Positions 16,395 through 27,764 of a stretch of DNA of 64,000 nucleotides are shown here, piece after piece; the stretch's first letter is position 1; each line of letters starts with the position of its first letter. Source of the DNA: Christensenellaceae bacterium (GTDB lineage: Bacteria; Bacillota; Clostridia; Christensenellales; CAG-138); NCBI GenBank assembly GCA_022510765.1, contig JAFLSU010000001.1:70551-134550 (forward strand), written 5' to 3'. The notes beneath the pieces are model-generated. The model searched no databases. It was not told the origin of the DNA and saw only the letters and a list, made by a program, of their open reading frames with translations. The position numbers and the translations under genes are program-made.

Positions 16395-17117
16395 GTGGAA
16401 GCGTTGATAAGCAGTCTAGCACAGGCGATCGAGTCAAGCATTTGGCTTGCTCCCGTGATCGCGCTCGTTTCGGGAGTGCTGACCTCTCTCATGCCATGTT
16501 CGCTTTCGACGATTCCCCTTATCATTGGCTATGTCGGCGGTGCGGAAGCTGTCGAAGGCAAATCCGCAAGGGCACTGCGTCTTAGCTTGCTCTTTGCGCT
16601 TGGATCCACTGTTTCGTTTTGCGTTCTTGGTCTGCTTGCTTCAGCGATAGGCGATTGGCTTGAACGTGCCGAGTGGGTTTTGCACCTTATCATGGGCATT
16701 CTGCTCGTTCTGATGGCGCTTCAAATGTGGGACGTGATAGAATTGATACCTTCTTCCAATTCAATTCTGACCCGCAATCGCATTAAAGGCGGTTTCGGCG
16801 CACTGGTTTCCGGCGTAATTGCAGGGCTCTTTGCATCCCATTGCGCACTGCCTGTCGTTATCACATTGATGGCGATAGCCGCAAATCACAGCGGCAGCGG
16901 GACGTGGTTTGGCGCACTGCTTCTGCTGTTGTTCGCCATTGGGCATGGGGTTTTATCGGTCATTGCGGGTACGAGTGTCGGCTTTGTTCAGAAGCTTATC
17001 TCGAGTGCCAAGTATGAGCGAGTCAGTAAAATTGTAAGAATAATTTTAGGCGTAATCATAGCTCTTGTTGCCCTGTACCTTTTCATAGAGGTAGTTTTGG
17101 AAGATCTTATCGTGTGA
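16395..17117 (+). CDS. ccdA: Cytochrome c biogenesis protein CcdA-family thiol-disulfide transporter
   Basis: 240 aa and 6 TM helices, with conserved Cys residues in TM1 (LTSLMPCSL) and TM4 (FASHCALPV). Confidence 0.85.
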   Translation: MEALISSLAQAIESSIWLAPVIALVSGVLTSLMPCSLSTIPLIIGYVGGAEAVEGKSARALRLSLLFALGSTVSFCVLGLLASAIGDWLERAEWVLHLIMGILLVLMALQMWDVIELIPSSNSILTRNRIKGGFGALVSGVIAGLFASHCALPVVITLMAIAANHSGSGTWFGALLLLLFAIGHGVLSVIAGTSVGFVQKLISSAKYERVSKIVRIILGVIIALVALYLFIEVVLEDLIV

Positions 17118-18479: not shown

Positions 18480-18568
18480 GGAGAGGTATCGAAGTGGTCA
18501 TAACGGGGCTGACTCGAAATCAGTTTGCGCGAGAGCGCACATGGGTTCGAATCCCATCCTCTCCGCCA
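18480..18568 (+). tRNA. tRNA-Ser (anticodon CGA), CCA-encoded
   Basis: It folds by hand. The acceptor stem is GGAGAGG/CCTCTCC. The T-arm is ATGGG-TTCGAAT-CCCAT. The anticodon stem is GCTGA/TCAGT with loop CT-CGA-AA. A long variable arm (TTGCGCGAGAGCGCAC) is typical of Ser, and the 3' end is GCCA. Confidence 0.9.
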
Positions 18569-18609
18569 AAACAGCACCGTAATTTTGATACCAAGATTGC
18601 GGTGCTTAT
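18565..18609. repeat. Direct repeat copy 1: tRNA-Ser 3' end plus its terminator
   Basis: GCCAAAACAGCACCGTAATTTTGATACCAAGATTGCGGTGCTTAT recurs at 19397-19440 with about 5 substitutions and 1 indel. Confidence 0.8.
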
Positions 18610-18639: not shown

Positions 18640-19314
18640 ATGGGAAGTAAATATTACGAAGCCTATGATAATCGTTTCAGGCAGATCCATGAACAGAATT
18701 TACAATGGTTCAGTGAATCTCCGTCCCCCATCGTAGCGGAAACCATCCGCACCTTTTCCATTTCCCCTCAGAGCAAACTATTAGAGATTGGCTGCGGCGA
18801 GGGGCGCGACGCATATTCGCTCCTCCGGCAGGGATTTGATCTTTTAGCAACCGATGTGTCTGCGGAAGCAATCGCATTTTGCAGGCGGAAGTTCCCCGAT
18901 TTTGCAGCGCATTTTCAAGTCACGGACTGCATCGCCGGAACGCTCGGCAGGACATTTGATTTCCTCTATGCGGTGGCTGTTCTCCATATGCTCGTTTTGG
19001 ACGACGACCGAAATGCATTTTATCGCTTCATCCGTGTGCATTTGGCTCCCACTGGGATCGCCTTGATCTGCACGATGGGCGACGGTACCTTTGAAAGGCA
19101 GACCGACATACACACCGCGTTTGACCTGCACGAGCGAATCCATGAACCGTCCGGAAAAGCCGTGCAAATTGCTGAGACCTCCTGCCGGATCGTCAATTTC
19201 CAGACCTTTGAAGAAGAGCTGATGCGAAACGGTCTAAACATTGTCAAAGAAGGCGTGACCGCTGTCGAGCCGGACTTTCCGCAAATGATGTTCGCTGTAG
19301 TTAAGAGGCATTGA
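18640..19314 (+). CDS. Class I SAM-dependent methyltransferase
   Basis: 224 aa with motif I LLEIGCGEGRD and a post-I acidic residue (LLATDVS). The gene is bracketed by the duplicated tRNA 3' flank. Confidence 0.85.
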   Translation: MGSKYYEAYDNRFRQIHEQNLQWFSESPSPIVAETIRTFSISPQSKLLEIGCGEGRDAYSLLRQGFDLLATDVSAEAIAFCRRKFPDFAAHFQVTDCIAGTLGRTFDFLYAVAVLHMLVLDDDRNAFYRFIRVHLAPTGIALICTMGDGTFERQTDIHTAFDLHERIHEPSGKAVQIAETSCRIVNFQTFEEELMRNGLNIVKEGVTAVEPDFPQMMFAVVKRH

Positions 19315-19396: not shown

Positions 19397-19440
19397 GCCA
19401 AAACGGCACCGTAATTTTGATACAAAGTTACGGTGCTTAT
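19397..19440. repeat. Direct repeat copy 2 (degenerate tRNA-Ser 3' end plus terminator hairpin)
   Basis: The sequence is GCCAAAACGGCACCGTAATTTTGATACAAAGTTACGGTGCTTAT. The hairpin GCACCGTAA/TTACGGTGC is preserved by compensatory changes. Confidence 0.8.
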
Positions 19441-20156: not shown

Positions 20157-20915
20157 CTACACAGAAATCGCTTCATTCATATTCGTTATGACATTAAACT
20201 CTCCATTGACCTTCTCCACCTCATAGAGCAGAGGATTTTTCTCAGCCCATTCTGGGTCGGTTTCGGCCCGTTTCTGCCATTTGCGGTAAGCCGCAGTAAA
20301 GCCGAGATGCAGAACCGCCTCAGCATCCAGTCGGGCTTGCACAGCCTCGTCAAATGTTTTGTACGTGCCAAGATAATAATGCTTTCTCTTAAATCCAATC
20401 TGCGCGGCATAAGTATCATGTTTTGTTTTCACAACACCACGAAATCCGCTGACATTATTTTTACGGTTTTTCGGCACAGCTAATTGTTCCAGGCATGTGC
20501 CGCTAACGTAATGTAAGCGGGAGCGCATTTCCGGCAGAGTTTCTTTCATTTTTAAGCATCCGCAGCTCTCTGTGGAACCATTTTTCAAATTACCGGCGTC
20601 TACCGAATGTAAGTTTCCGCAGTCACATTGGCACAGCCACTGAACATAGCCATTTTTATCTTTCGCTCTTCTCAGGACTGTAAGTTTGCCGAACCGCTGA
20701 CCGGTCAAATCTTCAATGCGCCGATATTTCTTTCGTTTCTCAGAGTCGCAGCCACAATCCATAATTGCACCGGAAGTCAACTGCCTGGTCGTCGCAAGAA
20801 TCTCACCGGCACAGTCGCATCGGCAGAGCCAGAGTTGCCTGCGGTTTTTATCTTTCTTTGCTTCTGCAACCGTCAATTTACCAAATCGTTGTCCGATCAG
20901 ATTTCCGTCACTCAT
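20157..20915 (-). CDS. DNA-binding protein with 2 Cys-rich (Zn-ribbon-like) repeats and a C-terminal AP2 domain
   Basis: 252 aa from the ATG, 8 nt after AGGAGGG. It has two repeats of G-Q-R-F-G-K-L-T-V..W-x-C-x-C-D-C..L..G...C-G-C. The C-terminus, SGFRGVVKTKHDTYAAQIGFKRKHYYLGTYKTFDEAVQARLDAE, matches the AP2/ERF-type pattern (G.rGV......w.A.I......yLG.f.t.eeAa.A). Confidence 0.8.
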   Translation of the reverse strand: MSDGNLIGQRFGKLTVAEAKKDKNRRQLWLCRCDCAGEILATTRQLTSGAIMDCGCDSEKRKKYRRIEDLTGQRFGKLTVLRRAKDKNGYVQWLCQCDCGNLHSVDAGNLKNGSTESCGCLKMKETLPEMRSRLHYVSGTCLEQLAVPKNRKNNVSGFRGVVKTKHDTYAAQIGFKRKHYYLGTYKTFDEAVQARLDAEAVLHLGFTAAYRKWQKRAETDPEWAEKNPLLYEVEKVNGEFNVITNMNEAISV

Positions 20916-20978
20916 CTGCTCAACCCTCCTGATAGTTGCAACAAATCTTCGCACTAAACCTGTGTTCTCAATATCTAT

Positions 20979-22163
20979 CTACTCTTTCTTATTGCCCTCG
21001 GCAACGTCGCCTACATTCGAGTATCCGTTGTAATACCAGTCAAGAAACCGCTCGTACATTTCTTCTCCGCGCTTCCTTGCTTTTACAGCGTCCTGAATGT
21101 CGGAGTATGAACCCAGATAGTAAGTCTTTCCTTTGAAGGTAATCTGAGCCGTCCACATTCCGTTGCCGTTCAGATAGACTCCGTTATGCCCGCTGGTATT
21201 GGATTTGATGGTTGATTCCATCCGCCTTTCAATCAAGCGGACGGATGTTCCGCCTACAAACTGCATATTTTTTTGATAGACTTCCCGCTGTAGACAGCCG
21301 CAGCTCTTTGTATGTCCATAGAGCAGATTTCCGTGTCGAACAGTTGTCTGGTTGCCGCACTCACACTGACATCGCCAATAGCCAATATCATCTTTCCATT
21401 CCGCAAACCCAATAACAGTAAGCCGGCCAAAGATTCTGCCGGTCAAATCAACGAGTTCACGGGGTTTGGAGCGCAAATCACTTTGTGAGACATCTGAGTT
21501 CGTTCCATCGGGTTTGTAATCTTGAATCCCAGCGGAGCTGATAAGCGCTAGACGTCTCTTCTGTTCGCCTGACAACTGCTTTCTGGCGAGATAACGCTTA
21601 CAACCGCAGTTTGTGATCTGACCGGACTGAAGACGAGTTTGCCCCACATCGATTTCCACACCGCACTCACATTTGCAATGCCAGTAGTGCAGACCAGACC
21701 TTTTTCCGGCATACTCCATTACCACAAGGGAGCCAAACTGCTTTCCCACATAATCCTTCAATGGGGGATGACTCAAACAGCCGCAGCTTTTTTTATAGCC
21801 TTGGGTGAGCTGCGTACTGATCGCCAAGCACTCATTTCCACAATCACACCGACATCGCCAGACGGTACCGCCACTTGAACCACGCTCGTTGGTTGGCTCA
21901 AGACAGATCAGTTTTCCGAACCGCTGTCCAGTCAGATCTTTCTGCCCGGACTTGACCTTGATGCCGCTACAGCCGCAGTCCCTGACCGTGGCGCGTTGCA
22001 GTTGTCGTGTATCCAGCAATATCTCGCCGCCGCAGTCACAGCAACATTTCCAGACAGAATAACGATGCCGATATAGCGGAGTCCGTTCCTGCACAGTTAG
22101 TTTCCCAATGCGGTATCCGATCTCGATTTTGGGTCGTTGTATAGTCAGATCTGTTTTATTCAT
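20979..22163 (-). CDS. DNA-binding protein with 4 Cys-rich (Zn-ribbon-like) repeats and a C-terminal AP2 domain
   Basis: 394 aa from the ATG (MNKTDL), preceded by AGAGGG. It has four copies of the same roughly 50-aa repeat (for example LTGQRFGKLICLEP..VWRCRCDCGNE..LTQGYKKSCGC). The AP2 segment is SGHNGVYLNGNGMWTAQITFKGKTYYLGSYSDIQDAVKARKRGEE. It is a paralog of the downstream gene, including the RBS region. Confidence 0.8.
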   Translation of the reverse strand: MNKTDLTIQRPKIEIGYRIGKLTVQERTPLYRHRYSVWKCCCDCGGEILLDTRQLQRATVRDCGCSGIKVKSGQKDLTGQRFGKLICLEPTNERGSSGGTVWRCRCDCGNECLAISTQLTQGYKKSCGCLSHPPLKDYVGKQFGSLVVMEYAGKRSGLHYWHCKCECGVEIDVGQTRLQSGQITNCGCKRYLARKQLSGEQKRRLALISSAGIQDYKPDGTNSDVSQSDLRSKPRELVDLTGRIFGRLTVIGFAEWKDDIGYWRCQCECGNQTTVRHGNLLYGHTKSCGCLQREVYQKNMQFVGGTSVRLIERRMESTIKSNTSGHNGVYLNGNGMWTAQITFKGKTYYLGSYSDIQDAVKARKRGEEMYERFLDWYYNGYSNVGDVAEGNKKE

Positions 22164-22494
22164 TGGTCTCAACCCTCTTTGCTACAACCACAACCCCTCC
22201 ATTCGACGTACCCATCGAACTGATAAAGTTTTTTGCTTTCATCGTGATCGCCCCAAAAGGCAGTGGCTAATGGATATGAGCCTTCCGTCGCCTATGTTCT
22301 CCTCTATTCATACATATATTTCTCACACTATTTCTTCCCAGTGCACCGTACTGTAACACGGGCTTCGCATACTATCGTACAGGTGAACAATTTTAACGCC
22401 CATTCGCCGCTCTGCATTTCTTCTACCACAGTTTTTGAAAGCATCTCTACCTTGGCAAAAGATCAATGCAATCATGGCGGCATTTGCTTTGCAC

Positions 22495-25400
22495 TCAGCT
22501 ATTGGAAATGCGTTTTTTGCGGGAAATACTTCCGAGATTAAGCACGGCACCGGTTAACAGAAGCCCGCCCAAAAGATAGAATGGCAACGTGCCGATTCCA
22601 CCGGCAGCAGGGAGATCATATAAACTGGGTTTATCGCTCAATACCATGCTTTCCAAATTGTTTACATTTAACCATTTAATGTCAGGATATTGTTGCTCAA
22701 ATTCTTCAATCTCCTCATCACTAAAATAGAAATAATACTTGTTAGGATCAAGATAATAACCAGCCGGCGCAGTTAACTCTTGCAGATAATAAACCACATT
22801 CGGGGCCAAAATTATACCTTGATTAAAATTCGTACGGAACTCAAATATTCCCTCATCATTCGTCGTTCCTGTTGTAATTTCGTGACCGTCAGCACTATAT
22901 AAACCATACCTCGCACCAGGAAGCCTGGTCCACTCACTCGATCCGAGTCCCACACCTCTTTCATCAATTTTTTCGATTGTAAGATGTATTCTGTACCATA
23001 CAGAACCACTATCAATGTCCATCTCACCGTTAGTTTCAGATGAAACACCAAAATTAGAAAAGCGTAAGATTGCTATATTACCGTAATAAATTCGCCCAGT
23101 TTCTTCTTCATCGAATTCAATCATTACATCATATTTAATGGTATACTCATGAGCACCCGGTTGCTGCAAATAAATAGTTAGTACCCTTGTATCGTTATCC
23201 CATTCGTAGGTATAATCTTTTTCATAGGCCAGTCGCGTATTATCCTCATCAATAACCAACGACCCCAGAACAAAAAACATATTTTTCATTTCATCCACGA
23301 TTTTAAGCTTTGCTTCCTCGCCTTCGCCTACATACTCGCCCAAATTAACTTTGCCACCCTCATTAATAACGATGGTATAACTACCAAAGCAGCTTTCGTT
23401 ACCAGAAGGCGAGCTCGTCTCAGTCTTTTTAATTAGTTTAGGAATAGGTAGTTTTATCTCAGATCTAGCTGCCGTAGCAGTACCATTACGTAAACGTGCC
23501 TCATTAATATATTCATCTTCTGTACTATCCAAAATTTTAACTTCATCGTATGTACCCAGTCCATATGTATCTGTTGCATACGTTATTATCAAATCAGCAT
23601 CTTCCATTAAACTCCAATGTGTACACCAATCCTCTCCACCTTCGAGATTAAACTGATCCTTTAAACTATATCTACAATTCTCTTCTTTACGGTTTACTAA
23701 ATAAAGCCAACCTACCGAATTGCAATAATAAGCAATCGTATCATCTTCATTAGCATCACTTACCTCCGGTAACACAAAACTTTCCCCATCATATCGAATT
23801 GCAACACTAGCACCATTCAAACGCCAAGTATAAGTCGATTCATCACCCAATTTCTCTTGGTCAACTATATTCCACTGACCATAATTTAGCCCATTATACT
23901 TAGGAATCGACGCTGTAATCATAAAATGATACTTGCCATCGTTCAGGTCAAGCTTCCCTGTTTTCTTTATTTCTGGCTTCGTCAAGCTTTCTCCACCTTC
24001 AGATGGAATCTCAAAGTCAAAATTTAACCAAAATTCTACACCCATAGCATCACTTGAATTTTCTTCAAACGTAATAGCAAGCAGACCATCTTTCTCAACT
24101 ACATAAGTGCCAATAACATCATTGCCAAGCTTAACCTCGCCAGCAACCTTTCCTTTAATTTCAAAAACTTCTTTCGGAAGCTGGCAGGTATAGACGCCCG
24201 ATTGAAATCCGTTATGATCAGTCGAATAAATATACATTGAGAACTTGTACTTCCCGCCAGGATACATGTTATAATGCCCCTCGTCATCTGGGTATATTTC
24301 TACATTGTTTTGTTCGTCTATTTTCCAGATGATTTTGTAGTTAAACTTTCCTCCTATGGAACGAATATATTCTTCCAAATTTCTTCCCTCAACAACATCT
24401 GCCAACACAAACGGTGAAAAGTGGTCTGCTGTAAAAGTTACTTTCGTTACAACTCCATTCTCACCAGTCGCGATTTCTGCTTCCAGATTTTCTGGTGTCT
24501 CTTCATCCTGCAAGTGGAACAACTTCCAGTCACCCGTATTAATAAATTTTTCAACCGGTGTTTGGAACTCCAAGGACACTGTTACATTACCATTTAACTG
24601 CACCTCATCTCCATCTACATTCACGAAGGAAATATCATAAGGATAGATTGCCGCTAACGCGAGCATCATTCCTGGCTGCTCCGGTTGTTGCAAGGCATTT
24701 TGTAAGGCCTGTTTTATCTTATCCAGCTGTTCTTGATGTTCTTGACCCTCGATCTGACTCACTCGCAACGACGCACCCTCGGGCACCGCATTACCATTGT
24801 CATATACAGATACTGTCACATTACCAATATTAACGGTTAAGTCAGTGTCCTCATTAGTAATTGCGGGTACTTCTGAATTCTCATCGGAAGGTTTCGGCTG
24901 CTCCTCAGTAGGTTCATCCAACTCTACCTCACGGAAACAGCCGTCTCCGTGGACATGCTCATAAAGCACTGTTTTCTCGCAGATCAACTGACCATCCAAA
25001 TCGTAACAATTCTCCGGACTATGGGTATGCATCTCCAGCTCACCACAAATCAACATCCCTGTTTCATCGTAGCAGCTTTCCTGATGCTCGTGGGGTGCAA
25101 TTTCAGGCAGTTGGCAGAGCAGACTTCCTTCCTCGTCCCAACAACCTTCGGTATGTACGTGAACCACATAATCTGCTTCTCCGCAGATTAGCTGTTCCTC
25201 TTCGTCGTAACATTCAGTTCCATGCTCATGAACAATGAGAGGGCAGTCCAGCAGCAGATTGCTGCCTACCTCTGCATCGCCGCTTGAATCGATAAGGTTG
25301 TCATCATCATTCGGATCTTCCTCCGCCGCTATCTCCCGGAAACAGCCGTCCCCATGGATATGCTCATAAAGCACTGTTTTTTCACAGATCAACTGACCGT

Positions 25401-26157
25401 CCAGATCGTAGCAATTCTCCGGACTATGGGTATGCATCTCCAGCTTATCGCAAATCAATATCCCCATTTCATCGTAACAGCTCTCTTGATGCTCATGGGG
25501 TGCGATTTCAGGCAGTTGGCAGAGCAGGTTTCCGGTCTCATCCAAACAACCTTCGGTATGTATGTGAACCACATAATCTGCTTCTCCGCAGATCAGATTC
25601 TTCTCTTCGTCGTAACATTCCGGCCCATGCTCATGAACGCTGAGAGGACAGTCCAGCAACAGATTACTGCCTGCCTCTTCCTCTGCCTCATGGAAACATT
25701 CGTCTCCGTGGACGTGCTCAAAAAGTGCTATTTTTCCGCAGGTCAACTGACCGTCCGCGTCGTAACAATTCTCCGAACTATGCGTATGCAGCTCCAGCTC
25801 ACCACAAATCAACATCCCCGTTTCATCGTAACAGCTTTCCTGATGCTCATGGGGCGCGATTTCAGGCAGTTGGCAGACCAGGTTCCCCGCCTCGTCCCAA
25901 CAACCTTCGGCATGCGCGTGAATCACATAATCCGCTTCCCCACATATAAGCTGCTCCTCTTCGTCGTAGCATTCCGGCCCATGCTCATGAACGATGAGAG
26001 GGCAGTCCAGCAACAGGCTATTGCTTGCCGCCGAGAACCTTGGCAAAGTTATTATATAGACCAATGCCAGCATCATCGCCACCACGCGTATCCAAACGGA
26101 GCGCCCCTTGCGCTTTTTGGAGGACGCATTTTGCGCCTGATTTTCAAATTTCATCAT
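22495..26157 (-). CDS. Sortase-anchored cell-surface protein (adhesin-like) with an N-terminal Cys/His-rich tandem repeats and a C-terminal Cna-B/SpaA-type domain
   Basis: The start is at MMKFEN (GAAGGA RBS), giving 1,220 aa. A signal/TM segment (WIRVVAMMLALVYIITL) is followed by three repeats of about 120-135 aa. A Cna-B-like domain is present (LPGARYGLYSADGHEITTGTTNDEGIFEF...YYLQELTAPAGYYLD). The C-terminus has LPAAG, then the hydrophobic stretch GIGTLPFYLLGGLLLTGAVL, then a basic tail RKKR, which reads as an LPXTG-like sorting signal. Confidence 0.85.
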   Translation of the reverse strand: MMKFENQAQNASSKKRKGRSVWIRVVAMMLALVYIITLPRFSAASNSLLLDCPLIVHEHGPECYDEEEQLICGEADYVIHAHAEGCWDEAGNLVCQLPEIAPHEHQESCYDETGMLICGELELHTHSSENCYDADGQLTCGKIALFEHVHGDECFHEAEEEAGSNLLLDCPLSVHEHGPECYDEEKNLICGEADYVVHIHTEGCLDETGNLLCQLPEIAPHEHQESCYDEMGILICDKLEMHTHSPENCYDLDGQLICEKTVLYEHIHGDGCFREIAAEEDPNDDDNLIDSSGDAEVGSNLLLDCPLIVHEHGTECYDEEEQLICGEADYVVHVHTEGCWDEEGSLLCQLPEIAPHEHQESCYDETGMLICGELEMHTHSPENCYDLDGQLICEKTVLYEHVHGDGCFREVELDEPTEEQPKPSDENSEVPAITNEDTDLTVNIGNVTVSVYDNGNAVPEGASLRVSQIEGQEHQEQLDKIKQALQNALQQPEQPGMMLALAAIYPYDISFVNVDGDEVQLNGNVTVSLEFQTPVEKFINTGDWKLFHLQDEETPENLEAEIATGENGVVTKVTFTADHFSPFVLADVVEGRNLEEYIRSIGGKFNYKIIWKIDEQNNVEIYPDDEGHYNMYPGGKYKFSMYIYSTDHNGFQSGVYTCQLPKEVFEIKGKVAGEVKLGNDVIGTYVVEKDGLLAITFEENSSDAMGVEFWLNFDFEIPSEGGESLTKPEIKKTGKLDLNDGKYHFMITASIPKYNGLNYGQWNIVDQEKLGDESTYTWRLNGASVAIRYDGESFVLPEVSDANEDDTIAYYCNSVGWLYLVNRKEENCRYSLKDQFNLEGGEDWCTHWSLMEDADLIITYATDTYGLGTYDEVKILDSTEDEYINEARLRNGTATAARSEIKLPIPKLIKKTETSSPSGNESCFGSYTIVINEGGKVNLGEYVGEGEEAKLKIVDEMKNMFFVLGSLVIDEDNTRLAYEKDYTYEWDNDTRVLTIYLQQPGAHEYTIKYDVMIEFDEEETGRIYYGNIAILRFSNFGVSSETNGEMDIDSGSVWYRIHLTIEKIDERGVGLGSSEWTRLPGARYGLYSADGHEITTGTTNDEGIFEFRTNFNQGIILAPNVVYYLQELTAPAGYYLDPNKYYFYFSDEEIEEFEQQYPDIKWLNVNNLESMVLSDKPSLYDLPAAGGIGTLPFYLLGGLLLTGAVLNLGSISRKKRISNS
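24922..26025 (-). repeat. Three tandem coding repeats (about 357-405 nt units) in the adhesin gene
   Basis: Protein units begin near residues 69, 188 and 323 of the long ORF (SNLLLDCPL..). They are near-identical at the protein level. The mirror ORFs at 24949-25191 and 25354-26190 on the plus strand reflect the DNA repetition. Confidence 0.9.
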
Positions 26158-26304
26158 GACGGTGTTCCTTCTTTCTTTAAAACAATTTAACAAAGCCATA
26201 TCAACGTTCTTCATCCGTATATTTCTCAAAATATATGAGAAAATAATATCGGGTGAGGAAGCGGCGGCTTCGTCTGTCGTCTGCTTTGATGATTGAGGCA
26301 GAAT

Positions 26305-26326
26305 ATTTCGCAGAGTTCTTCACTCT
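26305..26326. repeat. Inverted repeat, left arm (ATTTCGCAGAGTTCTTCACTCT)
   Basis: It is the exact reverse complement of 27743-27764 (22 of 22). Confidence 0.95.
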
Positions 26327-26337
26327 GCACATTCAGC

Positions 26338-26366
26338 ATTATAGCATAAGTGCTTGGCTTTTGCAA
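26338..26366 (-). promoter_or_regulatory. Near-consensus outward-facing promoter inside the IR-bounded segment, directed at the adhesin gene
   Basis: On the minus strand, TTGCAA (26366-26361) is followed by the 17-nt spacer AAGCCAAGCACTTATGC and TATAAT (26343-26338). It lies 11 nt inside IR-L, and transcription would run through IR-L to the ATG at 26157. Confidence 0.55.
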
Positions 26367-26547: not shown

Positions 26548-27666
26548 ATGTCAAGGAAAGGCGAAAACATTTACAAGCGTAAAGACAACCGCTGGGAGGC
26601 ACGGTATATCAAGGGTTACACAGCGGAAGGAATCATTCGTTATGGCTATTGCTATGCAGCAACGTATCGAGAAGTAAAAGAAAAGGTGACGGCCGCAAAG
26701 GCTGCCTTGATGAATAATCTCACTCCGGAACCAGTGAGCATCAGACGTCGGTTCGGTCTTTACTGCGACGAATGGCTCCGATTGAATCGCAGTCGTGTCA
26801 AGGAATCCACTTATGTCAAGTATATAACGAACATAGAAAATCATATTAAACCAAAGCTCGGCGGGTGCTTTGTGCAGGGGCTTTCTTCACTGATTGTTGA
26901 GGAATTCAGCCATGATTTGCTTTATGAAAAGGAATTATCCCCAAAAACAGTTCGGGACATTTTGATGCTTCTTCATGCTATTCTCAAATATACGCAGAAA
27001 CAGGTGCCGAATATGCCTTTGGTAGAAGTGGTCTATCCAAAGGACATAAAAAAGGAAATGAGGGTATTAAGCCGAGACGAACAAACGCGCTTGGTTCAAT
27101 ATCTGCTTTTAGATATGGACGAATGTAAATTTGGCGTATTGCTTGCGCTGCTGACCGGACTGCGGATAGGTGAAGTATGCGCACTGCGCTGGCGGGATGT
27201 CTCTTTGACAGACAAGCTGATGTGCGTTTCTTCTACTATGCAGCGACTTAAAAATCTCGATGAGAATGCACAGCAAAAAACAAAAATTATCATCAGCAAT
27301 CCAAAAAGCAACACATCTGCCCGACAGATCCCATTGACCGATTATACCGTGAAGCTCTGTAAAGTCTGGGAGGTTCGTGATCCCTCTGCGTTTGTTCTTA
27401 CGGGAGAGACTGACCGCTATATTGAGCCTCGCACATTGCAGTATCGCTTAGAGCGCTATACCAAGGATTGCGATCTTTCCGGTGTCCATTTTCATGTGAT
27501 GCGACACACTTTCGCTACCCGATGTGTTGAGGTTGGTTTTGAAATTAAGTCCCTTTCCGAAATCTTAGGTCACACAAGTCCGAAGTTCACGCTAGAGCGG
27601 TACGTTCATTCTTCTTTGGAGTTGAAGCGTGACAACATGAGCAAGCTGGGGGCTATCGGTTACTGA
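26548..27666 (+). CDS. Tyrosine-type site-specific recombinase/integrase with an N-terminal AP2-like arm-binding domain
   Basis: 372 aa with an AAGGAGG RBS. The N-terminus is ENIYKRKDNRWEARYIKGY...YGYCYAATYREV (Tn916-Int-like arm-binding pattern). The catalytic set is TGLRIGEVCALRW (R), HVMRHTFAT (H-x-x-R) and LGHTSPKFTLERYVH (H...Y). Confidence 0.9.
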   Translation: MSRKGENIYKRKDNRWEARYIKGYTAEGIIRYGYCYAATYREVKEKVTAAKAALMNNLTPEPVSIRRRFGLYCDEWLRLNRSRVKESTYVKYITNIENHIKPKLGGCFVQGLSSLIVEEFSHDLLYEKELSPKTVRDILMLLHAILKYTQKQVPNMPLVEVVYPKDIKKEMRVLSRDEQTRLVQYLLLDMDECKFGVLLALLTGLRIGEVCALRWRDVSLTDKLMCVSSTMQRLKNLDENAQQKTKIIISNPKSNTSARQIPLTDYTVKLCKVWEVRDPSAFVLTGETDRYIEPRTLQYRLERYTKDCDLSGVHFHVMRHTFATRCVEVGFEIKSLSEILGHTSPKFTLERYVHSSLELKRDNMSKLGAIGY

Positions 27667-27742: not shown

Positions 27743-27764
27743 AGAGTGAAGAACTCTGCGAAAT
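27743..27764. repeat. Inverted repeat, right arm (AGAGTGAAGAACTCTGCGAAAT)
   Basis: It is the exact reverse complement of 26305-26326. Confidence 0.95.

Follow-up and report, generated by a model that had tools for sequence, protein, structure and literature searches.

A candidate metal-stapled Cys2His2 module array in an orphaned pilus-tip-type surface protein beside a probable invertible promoter

Sortase-assembled pili of Gram-positive bacteria carry tip adhesins such as RrgA, SpaC, Cpa and GBS104, and tandem zinc fingers and knuckles (C2H2, CCHC, PHD, LIM) are intracellular and mostly eukaryotic. Both sortase pili and zinc-stabilised mini-domains are well known. The G5-E repeats of Aap/SasG mediate zinc-dependent intercellular adhesion, and E. 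coli fimS/FimBE and Salmonella hin are invertible promoter switches. Surface proteins of C. diphtheriae (ZnuE/F/G and CmrA) bear zinc-binding HxD...HxH motifs (PMC12445094), and C. difficile cwpV/RecV is reported as an invertible switch (PMC3080850). So far as the searched literature and databases reach, no extracellular chain of Cys2His2 modules has been described from a pilus tip. We analysed a surface protein with such an array in a 64-kb stretch of Christensenellaceae DNA (the window; Table 1).

The same 1220-aa product is called on an ENA contig (P0001), and an identical NCBI record (MCH5278236.1) is labelled 'hypothetical protein [Christensenellaceae bacterium]'. Because an AAGGAA ribosome-binding site lies ~8 nt 5' of ATG 26157, this codon is the likely start rather than TTG 26229. 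The first-pass annotation had described a secreted, wall-anchored protein, and the sequence fits this reading: a signal peptide can be read by inspection, and near the C-terminus LPAAG, a putative wall-sorting signal, is followed by hydrophobic residues and then a basic tail. The repeat array lies upstream of a Cna-B/SpaA-like domain and this signal, as was also claimed; the domain matches the PDB collagen adhesin 6fwv as well (E 1.2e-7). The NCBIfam model for SpaH/EbpB major pilins (NF033902) reached 41.4 bits, below its curated cut-off of 95, and covered the C-terminal 236 residues only. The body between array and SpaA/CnaB-type domain has no Pfam match; its nearest relative is P0184, a protein in tip position of a pilus operon (30% identity over 928 aa by BLASTP).

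Table 1. Features of the repeat-protein locus, in window coordinates.
Feature	Position	Strand	Basis or remark
Sortase gene 3' remnant, …WALKLFTCTIVCEARVTVRC, including TLxTC-type catalytic motif	22343..22438	(-)	tblastn
Cys/His-repeat surface protein gene, 1220 aa	22495..26157	(-)	ORF list; open frame extends to TTG 26229
Sorting signal LPAAGGIGT, hydrophobic stretch, basic tail RKKRISNS, stop	22495..22614	(-)	C-terminal sequence
SpaA/CnaB-type Ig-like domain, residues 1100-1173	22711..22932	(-)	Pfam PF17802, 37.6 bits against cut-off 23.1
Body, no assigned fold, residues 437-1099	22933..24921	(-)	BLASTP to P0184
Unit 3, modules A-E	24922..25263	(-)	residues 323-436, TTG-ORF numbering
Unit 2, modules A-E and 18-aa acidic linker	25264..25668	(-)	residues 188-322, TTG-ORF numbering
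Unit 1, modules A-E	25669..26025	(-)	residues 69-187, TTG-ORF numbering
Signal peptide region MMKFENQAQNASSKKRKGRSVWIRVVAMMLALVYIITLPRFSAA	26026..26157	(-)	translation inspected: basic n-region, 18-aa hydrophobic core, SAA-S end
Inverted repeat left arm, 22 nt, perfect	26305..26326		between promoter and repeat-protein gene
Sigma-70-like promoter TTGCAA-17 nt-(TG)TATAAT (predicted)	26338..26366	(-)	best in scan, 10/12 matches, extended -10; reads towards repeat-protein gene
Tyrosine recombinase gene, 372 aa	26548..27666	(+)	Pfam Phage_integrase (E 4e-25) and Phage_int_SAM_3; inside inverted repeats
Inverted repeat right arm, 22 nt, perfect	27743..27764		same repeat as left arm

A scan of the open frame (22495..26229, minus strand) for C-x(3-9)-HxH-x(3-4)-C returned 15 matches at residues 76-431 (nt 24937-26004), against a mean of 0.1 and a maximum of 3 in 2000 shuffles of the array region. 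Scan and shuffles bear out the 15 C-x(4-7)-H-x-H-x(3-4)-C modules, in three units of five, that had been noticed at first. The array spans residues 69-436 (nt 24922-26025), exactly as first delimited, and its 30 Cys, 31 His, pI of 4.17 and net charge of about -82 agree with the earlier count of about 30 of each residue in an acidic background. Modules of ~23 residues follow the consensus C-x(4-7)-H-x-H-x3-C-[YFW]-D-x2-G-x-L-x, and five types make up one domain: A (CxxxVHxH), B (ADYVVHxH), C (LPEIxxHxH), D (LELHTH) and E (LxEHVHGDxCF). The start caps A-B-C (VLxC..VHxH, ADYVVHxH, LPEIxxHxH) and the end caps D-E (LELHTH, LxEHVHGxxCF) each occur three times in the window protein and at least once in relatives. 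Unit starts lie 354 and 405 nt apart, so that of the two spacings first given, 357 and 405 nt, only the second holds. Nor are the units near-identical, as had been stated, since pairwise identity is only 74-84% for protein and 84-87.5% for DNA. The proposal that they are recent or homogenised also fails: with a dS of 0.48-0.56 and a dN/dS of 0.14-0.26 from unit to unit, and longest identical stretches of 24-34 nt, we read the triplication as old and under purifying selection. All 30 Cys and all 30 motif His are retained across the units despite a dS of ~0.5.

The first reading could place the repeat in no family, and indeed neither Pfam nor NCBIfam yielded a match; nor did the PDB, whether compared by sequence or by fold, or the literature searched. 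A profile search with the unit recovered 2577 cluster representatives at E <= 1e-3, with matches usually beginning near residue 54, just past the signal peptide. We define the family as proteins with at least three tandem C-x(2-11)-HxH-x3-C-[YFW] modules right after the signal peptide; the window protein has 15, from residue 76. At the DNA level the pattern occurs in at least 119 species, chiefly Lachnospiraceae and Oscillospiraceae, and 116 of the 119 genome loci from this search hold at least three modules. The hosts are strict anaerobes of gut and rumen. Cultured carriers include Acetatifactor aquisgranensis DSM 110981, Anaeromassilibacillus senegalensis An867, Pseudoflavonifractor sp. MSJ-30 and Lachnospiraceae bacterium FE2018. 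Since the arrays of relatives lie N-terminal to CHAP, lectin, CBM26 and VWA domains, they are not a simple stalk between wall and head domain. The modules belong to a large, unnamed repeat family that sits outermost on pilus-tip proteins in anaerobic bacteria of gut and rumen.

Strict invariance in the array is confined to potential ligands. In 28 aligned homologous units (36-51% identity), 10 Cys and 10 His form the only invariant columns, and in 47 aligned A-B-C segments again only Cys and His columns are invariant. In a set of 3703 modules picked without reference to His, 98% have His six and four positions ahead of the second Cys, and the spacing from HxH to Cys is 3 in 98.6% of 4676 cores. 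The metal-binding knuckle, one of two readings offered at first, is on these grounds the best reading. The other, which we regard as unlikely, takes the modules as disulfide-stapled beta-hairpins. The Cys would then pair as C1-C2, or C2 with the next C1, and HxH would serve another end, such as weak intermolecular metal bridging or pH sensing. Cys numbers are even in most arrays, those without an initial Cys almost always have an additional one at the far end, and a predicted YDxxGxL hairpin is spanned by C-x8-C; there is also a chance-level likeness (E ~1) to the disulfide-closed CPxxWxxxxxxCF hairpin of NKR-P1B, which is N-terminal in C-type lectin-like receptors. However, both His are as invariant as the Cys, for which a disulfide alone cannot account, the strict gut and rumen anaerobes that carry the family live in a reducing extracellular milieu, and the sole thiol-redox gene nearby encodes a CcdA/DsbD-type transporter of reductant.

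AlphaFold2 predicted modules A-C with a mean pLDDT of 79.5 (blocks up to 88), each module having a helical turn that bears the second Cys and a Y...L beta-bridge; a five-unit model has an additional hairpin around the first Cys. The pTM of 0.44-0.49 fits expectation because the chain is extended. Two ligand groupings find favour in the array ends. The first Cys opens 81% of arrays and some end in C-x4-HxH with no second Cys; both features speak for C-H-H-C inside a single module. But of the 143 arrays that start with HxH, 121 carry an extra Cys at the end, which favours HxH-x3-C-x8-C. We lean, with moderate confidence, towards a model in which, in an anaerobe, a fibre at the distal pilus tip owes its stability to one metal ion per module, probably Zn, its expression being switched by the adjacent promoter segment. 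The array is the cell-distal N-terminal part of a secreted protein descended from a sortase-pilus tip subunit. A single module would be too small for a hydrophobic core and would fold around one ion, probably Zn2+, through its own two Cys and two His. About 15 such knuckles in a chain would give a thin, very acidic fibre, outermost on the protein, that would give the adhesin its reach or its point of contact. Metal staples would take the place of disulfides because the latter are unreliable in a reducing anaerobic habitat.

The gene context of relatives points to a pilus. In six of six, a signal-peptidase or recombinase gene is followed by the repeat-protein gene and then by a SpaA/pilinBB LPXTG backbone pilin and a sortase, and because the gene precedes backbone pilin and sortase we assign the relatives to the pilus-tip position. 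An S26 peptidase gene lies within 8 kb at 86 of the 119 loci. Metal scavenging and redox sensing had been suggested alongside adhesion; the gene contexts of the window and six relatives hold no pointer to either. We hold it very unlikely that the array is a surface sponge capturing or storing zinc (or Ni, Co or Cu) to feed uptake, like pneumococcal Pht or C. diphtheriae ZnuF/ZnuG/CmrA, for the neighbours in these contexts are pilins, sortases, signal peptidases and recombinases and no metal transporter or regulator adjoins. Multi-site His-motif zinc proteins do exist on surfaces (PMC12445094), and the family displays up to 15-32 Cys2His2 sites per protein. The conserved hydrophobic positions and the capping modules A-C and D-E nevertheless indicate a folded domain. 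Zinc in Cys2His2 sites is, besides, usually held too tightly for easy hand-over. We give an equally low chance to a 'zinc zipper' that would act in trans between neighbouring cells or pili, as in Aap/SasG G5-E, and drive aggregation. The placing of the tandem repeat, outermost on a surface fibre, would suit it, as would the charge of the array, which is so acidic that any self-association would require cations; against it, the four conserved ligands of each module suffice for a closed site in cis, and the array shows no similarity to G5-E.

The 64-kb window itself has neither a backbone pilin gene nor one for a signal peptidase, and it holds no intact sortase gene. Downstream of the repeat-protein gene lies a remnant of ~40 sortase codons, which tblastn matched to the second, small sortase that pilus operons encode (L036, E 5e-9; L128, E 8e-6; L005, E 1e-4), and AP2-like genes in the window are syntenic with relatives. 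We interpret the locus as a degraded pilus operon in which the repeat-protein gene is orphaned. With its pilus partner genes lost, the protein would be displayed alone, anchored to the wall if LPAAG is still cleaved and otherwise tethered to the membrane by its C-terminal helix. Because the pilin and sortase genes are lost and the sorting signal has Ala where LPXTG has Thr, the window copy may function differently or poorly. That it is an evolutionary leftover whose role has gone with the deleted operon and damaged signal is a doubtful reading. The missing partners speak for it, as does the rarity of the motif among 253 relatives (LPxAG in just 3, LPxTG in 188, mostly followed by GGxGT). However, the frame is intact over 1220 codons, the inter-unit dN/dS is low, the gene has a ribosome-binding site, a predicted promoter that is strong and a predicted inverted-repeat/recombinase switch that is intact, and two other relatives, with LPEAG, appear intact.

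The 22-nt inverted-repeat sequence occurs twice in the 64 kb, where no copy is expected. As in an inverton, its arms enclose an outward-reading promoter and a site-specific recombinase gene; we found no target-site duplication at the segment. This 1.46-kb segment beside the repeat-protein gene is a probable invertible promoter, and its inversion, carrying promoter and tyrosine recombinase gene, would switch expression of the repeat protein on and off. To judge by the probable invertible promoters beside such genes, the structures may be phase-variable colonisation factors.

Although Pfam, NCBIfam and the PDB lack the module, it turns up in thousands of protein clusters and, among the dominant Clostridia of gut and rumen, in at least 119 species. 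Should metal binding prove true, the modules would constitute a new domain family and would account for the cross-bracing of small extracellular domains in strict anaerobes that do without disulfides; zinc availability and redox state would then bear on how abundant commensals adhere. A bolder, quite improbable extension has the array serve the pilus tip as a mechanical element that is gated by metal and redox state: it would be folded and adhesive only with its ~15-30 thiolate-ligated metal sites filled, and would collapse on zinc withholding (for example by host calprotectin) or once its thiols are oxidised close to the oxygenated mucosa. In that case host nutritional immunity, together with the oxygen gradient, would directly tune where these commensal anaerobes attach, and the array would be the first bacterial extracellular zinc-finger-like fibre and a general disulfide substitute in anaerobes.

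Like the known tip adhesins, the relatives are encoded first among the structural genes of an operon that also specifies a backbone pilin and a class C-type sortase, and they share the Sec signal peptide, C-terminal SpaA/CnaB domain and LPxTGGxGT-type sorting signal. They differ in their distal part, a Cys2His2 module array here and a VWA or thioester domain there; the window copy differs further in having no operon partners and in its LPAAG. With zinc fingers and knuckles the array shares modules of ~20-30 residues, four invariant Cys/His with little else kept, and a predicted short hairpin and helical turn. A profile match to the MLL PHD3 finger was marginal (E 0.03), and no fold match was found. 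The C-x4-7-H-x-H-x3-C order and spacing, however, fit no Pfam zinc-finger model, the array lies outside the cell on a bacterial fibre, and its composition is not basic but strongly acidic. The classical C2H2 finger (C-x2-4-C-x12-H-x3-5-H) was rejected, as the order here is C,H,H,C and no zinc-finger Pfam model matched at E <= 10.

Pht, ZnuE/F/G and CmrA are likewise secreted or wall-associated Gram-positive proteins with multiple His-containing metal motifs, and ZnuG has a sortase signal. In contrast to the modules, with which they share no sequence similarity, their motifs have no Cys and bracket ~150-residue regions or form histidine triads, and their genes are zinc-regulated and adjoin ABC importers. 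The pneumococcal histidine triad (HxxHxH) was also set aside; the motif here is HxH with Cys, and Pfam Strep_his_triad did not match. Aap/SasG G5-E offers tandem repeats on an LPXTG protein and a zinc dependence that is putative here, but its repeats are ~128 residues long and free of Cys, its zinc bridges two molecules through His/Asp/Glu, and Pfam G5 has no match in the window protein. The linker C-Y-D-x-x-G-x-L-x-C has the YDxxGxL hairpin signature of YD/RHS and MORN_2 beta-hairpin repeats, which themselves have no Cys/His ligands. One homologue's array totals 34.3 bits on Pfam MORN_2, with no single stretch significant; the window array matched neither MORN_2 nor YD (RHS) at E <= 10. As in fimS/FimBE, hin and cwpV/RecV, inverted repeats bracket a promoter beside a surface-protein gene, with a recombinase gene beside or inside, a likeness drawn here from the sequence layout. 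The arrangement resembles that of hin in holding the recombinase within the segment, but the enzyme is a tyrosine recombinase here and a serine recombinase in hin.

Searching the translation of the long minus-strand open reading frame for the pattern C-x(3-9)-HxH-x(3-4)-C, we obtained 15 matches between residues 76 and 431; over 2000 rounds of shuffling, the same region averaged 0.1 matches and never exceeded 3. These matches ("modules" of about 23 residues) are organized as three units of five modules each (A-E), with unit starts spaced 354 and 405 nt apart and an 18-residue acidic linker as an extra in the second unit. The array (residues 69-436) contains 30 Cys and 31 His; its pI is 4.17, and it carries a net charge near -82. 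The 15-module array in three units described in the first-pass annotation is thus real and spans exactly what was claimed. AAGGAA precedes the ATG at 26157, which is probably the start of the gene and yields the 1220-aa product called on an ENA contig; the deposited protein MCH5278236.1, titled "hypothetical protein [Christensenellaceae bacterium]", is identical to it. A signal peptide is predicted at the N-terminus by inspection. The sole Pfam domain is a SpaA domain at residues 1100-1173, and the C-terminal end reads LPAAGGIGT, a hydrophobic stretch and RKKR, a sorting signal with Ala where Thr is normal. Haem c and Rieske sites were rejected for the array, which has no CxxCH and a spacing unlike the Rieske CxH...CxxH. 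We also rejected as spurious a 278-aa plus-strand ORF that is antisense to the repeat and itself repetitive; the codon pattern of the repeat almost certainly accounts for it.

The array, which the first-pass annotation could not place in a known family, lies outside any described one. Pfam and NCBIfam gave no match on it, either within the whole protein or when it was scanned alone at E <= 10; PDB sequence searches gave chance-level matches only (PHD finger, E 0.03; C-type lectin hairpin, E ~1); fold searches with two AlphaFold2 models gave no match; and full-text literature searches, including literal motif strings and Cys/His repeats on pili, found no description of the module. A word-index search with a single 119-aa unit was likewise empty, which we ascribe to an index limit because the full-length protein and a unit profile retrieve thousands of proteins. 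The former gave 2605 matches, the best 120 of which all carry 8-32 modules directly after the signal peptide, and the latter, run against 1.84 billion cluster representatives, gave 2577 proteins at E <= 1e-3, of which 1606 reached E <= 1e-10. Genomes were searched with a degenerate DNA pattern designed by hand for module C, which found at least 119 species genomes. Among the matches listed, 116 of 119 genomes have an ORF with at least 3 modules at the pattern site, and the hosts, several of them cultured strains (Acetatifactor aquisgranensis DSM 110981 is one cultured carrier), are mostly Lachnospiraceae and Oscillospiraceae/Ruminococcaceae of gut and rumen, with a few Erysipelotrichaceae, one Atopobiaceae MAG and one Dehalobacterium. 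The family is abundant in major gut anaerobes, unannotated and open to direct testing.

Conservation is concentrated in the putative ligands. Across 28 homologous five-module units (36-51% identity to the unit of the window), no column is invariant except those of the 10 Cys and 10 His, and in 47 A-B-C segments again only Cys and His are invariant. When 3703 modules were chosen solely by their two Cys and an aromatic residue following the second of them, 98% had His at -6 and -4, the exceptions being mostly spacing variants. Of 4676 cores, 98.6% have a spacing of 3 between HxH and Cys; the spacing is most often 8 between the second Cys and the next first Cys, and mostly 4 or 7 between the first Cys and the His. 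The five-module unit is a recognizable higher-order domain, with A-B-C and D-E as conserved types acting as caps and a variable number of generic modules inserted between C and D in relatives. P0184, the closest relative over the whole protein, has a single domain of seven modules, and the window's protein carries the minimal five-module version three times. Its units share 74-84% protein and 84-87.5% DNA identity, with dS of 0.48-0.56 (Nei-Gojobori), dN/dS of 0.14-0.26 and longest identical in-register runs of 24-34 nt, and all Cys and all motif His are kept across the three. The triplication is thus old, followed by long divergence under purifying selection, and the units do not bear out the initial description of them as recent or homogenized and able to expand or contract. 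A metagenome scan aimed at comparing copy number between strains gave no orthologues of the body of the protein (residues 437-1099, between array and SpaA domain), and we found no second allele of the gene. The array is an old, selected, secreted tandem repeat, invariant only in two Cys and two His per ~23 residues.

AlphaFold2 modelled a whole unit at a mean pLDDT of 70.8 and modules A-C at one of 79.5, the best ten-residue blocks reaching 88, with a pTM of only 0.44-0.49; the models suggest locally defined modules strung in an extended chain. They place the second Cys of each module on a helical turn, and the aromatic residue after it forms a bridge with the linker's Leu (YDxxGxL); the five-module model also has a short hairpin around the first Cys. 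We propose that each module would chelate one metal ion, most likely Zn2+: a module this small cannot hold a hydrophobic core, extracellular thiolates remain reduced in a reducing habitat, and Cys2His2 is the classic tetrahedral Zn ligand set. The Cys could instead staple hairpins by disulfides; with thiolates expected to stay reduced, we hold this reading to be unlikely. Two ligand registers can be considered for chelation. A C-H-H-C set within one module is favoured because the first Cys opens 81% of arrays and some arrays end in C-x4-HxH without a second Cys, and an HxH-x3-C-x8-C register is favoured because arrays starting with HxH nearly always gain an end Cys (121 with an extra terminal Cys versus 22 without). 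There is little chance, in our estimate, that the array is a zinc zipper acting in trans. Chelation along the array would produce a metal-stapled acidic fibre at the pilus tip, for reach or contact; that so many ligands serve as a metal sponge seems improbable to us.

The pilus assignment comes from the neighbourhoods of relatives. A SpaA/GramPos_pilinBB LPXTG protein and a sortase lie downstream of the repeat protein in 6/6 relatives examined, followed in most by a small CnaB/DUF5979 protein and a second sortase, and an S26 signal-peptidase homologue lies upstream in 5/6. Such a gene order is that of a sortase-assembled Gram-positive pilus operon, in which the first structural gene holds the tip-adhesin position. 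From this layout, the repeat protein of relatives appears to occupy the tip-adhesin position of a pilus operon. An LPxTG end, typically LPETGGxGT, is present in 188/253 relatives, and arrays are combined with CHAP, VWA, ricin-lectin, CBM26 and DUF7601 domains, the arrays being N-terminal and hence more distal. These data place the array at the predicted distal end of anaerobes' pilus-tip proteins. In three relatives (P0092, P0094 and P0101), a CHAP peptidoglycan hydrolase, CBM26 starch-binding or ricin-type lectin domains lie between or after Cys/His arrays, which hints at diverse targets, from the walls of other bacteria to starch in the diet. Signal peptides end in LILPAIT[ML]E or ALK[LM]YGQAM[ST]H (N-termini of P0184, P0099, P0180, P0109 and P0194, and others, e.g. 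P0045). These two conserved motifs, together with an S26 gene within 8 kb at 86/119 genome loci among the matches listed, suggest that a dedicated signal peptidase or chaperone processes these proteins, in the manner of SipA.

The copy in the window is orphaned: within the 64 kb we found neither a backbone pilin nor a signal peptidase nor an intact sortase. Directly 3' of its stop codon, a stretch of about 40 codons, including the LFTCT catalytic motif, aligns with the C-terminal end of the small sortase that comes second in pilus operons (best E 5e-9). The simplest reading is that a deletion took out the pilin and sortase genes. In the two paralogues beyond this fragment, Cys-rich W-x-C-x-C-x-C-G units are repeated internally and the C-terminus is AP2-like; neither has a Pfam family above threshold, and both match the same AP2-domain gene of a relative's pilus locus. 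The loss of pilus genes could mean that the repeat protein is a non-functional relic in this genome; its units retain the signature of purifying selection and its gene faces a strong candidate promoter, and we regard a relic as unlikely. Also nearby, 9 kb from the gene, is a CcdA/DsbD-type membrane protein; such proteins pass reductant to the outside, which would fit thiols being reduced outside the cell. After a tRNA-Ser(CGA) comes a 31-nt direct repeat around a methyltransferase gene, a segment that looks like a small inserted cassette. An island integrated at this tRNA was rejected, as no matching att-like repeat occurs near the recombinase.

Features of the repeat-protein locus and of related loci
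Feature	Location	Strand	Remark
CcdA/DsbD-type membrane protein	16395-17117	+	
tRNA-Ser(CGA)	18480-18568		
31-nt direct repeat	18565-18595, 19397-19427		94% identical
Methyltransferase gene	18640-19314		
AP2-like paralogue	20157-20954	-	homologue of pilus-locus gene in relative, E 2e-19
AP2-like paralogue	20979-22172	-	homologue of pilus-locus gene in relative, E 5e-26
Sortase remnant	22343-22438	-	
Repeat-protein ORF	22495-26229	-	
Cys/His array	24922-26025	-	
Spurious ORF	25354-26190	+	
22-nt inverted repeat	26305-26326, 27743-27764		
Probable invertible segment	26305-27764		
Sigma-70-like promoter, TTGCAA-17-TGnTATAAT	26366-26338	-	best in region; enclosed by inverted repeat
Tyrosine recombinase gene	26548-27666		enclosed by inverted repeat
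AP2-domain gene of relative	L127 20186-20767		
Inverted repeats of relatives	L125 9089-9363, L126 8574-8876, L127 6529-6831		
Recombinase homologue	L066 2688-3779		

Upstream of the gene lies a perfect 22-nt inverted repeat, with only two copies in the window and 0 expected by chance. From its position 11 nt inside the left arm, the promoter is directed outwards into the repeat-protein gene. We conclude that the bracketed segment is probably an invertible (phase-variation) on/off switch of this gene, which would be ON in the assembled orientation. An IS-like element was rejected, as the arms lack a flanking target-site duplication and the recombinase is of the tyrosine type. A conjugative-element adhesin beside a phage-type integrase was rejected because relatives' neighbours are pilus genes, not conjugation genes, and because the perfect inverted repeats bracket the recombinase together with the promoter. 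Three relatives (L125, L126 and L127) have 25-29-nt inverted repeats 225-247 nt apart and directly upstream of the pilus operon, preceded by a tyrosine recombinase gene that is shorter than the window's; each arm is palindromic (CATAAT...ATTATG), and the layout resembles fimS. Similar pairs occur in L014, L041 and L054. In an unrelated Clostridia MAG (L066), a homologue with 51% identity to the 372-aa recombinase of the window adjoins another Cys/His-repeat gene, so the recombinase-adhesin pairing recurs; this contig ends short of where the right-hand repeat could appear.

We class the repeat protein among pilus-tip proteins, with a Cys2His2 repeat domain not described before in the sources searched; its functional steps are inferred. 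It would work like the tip adhesins of sortase pili, although in the window's genome its gene stands outside a pilus operon. The YDxxGxL linker recalls YD/MORN hairpins, with a summed Pfam MORN_2 score on a homologue only. The array is unlike the surface zinc proteins Pht and ZnuF/ZnuG/CmrA, which are without Cys and adjoin importers (PMC12445094). Its logic is like that of tandem zinc fingers, from which it differs in ligand order, spacing, sequence and predicted fold.
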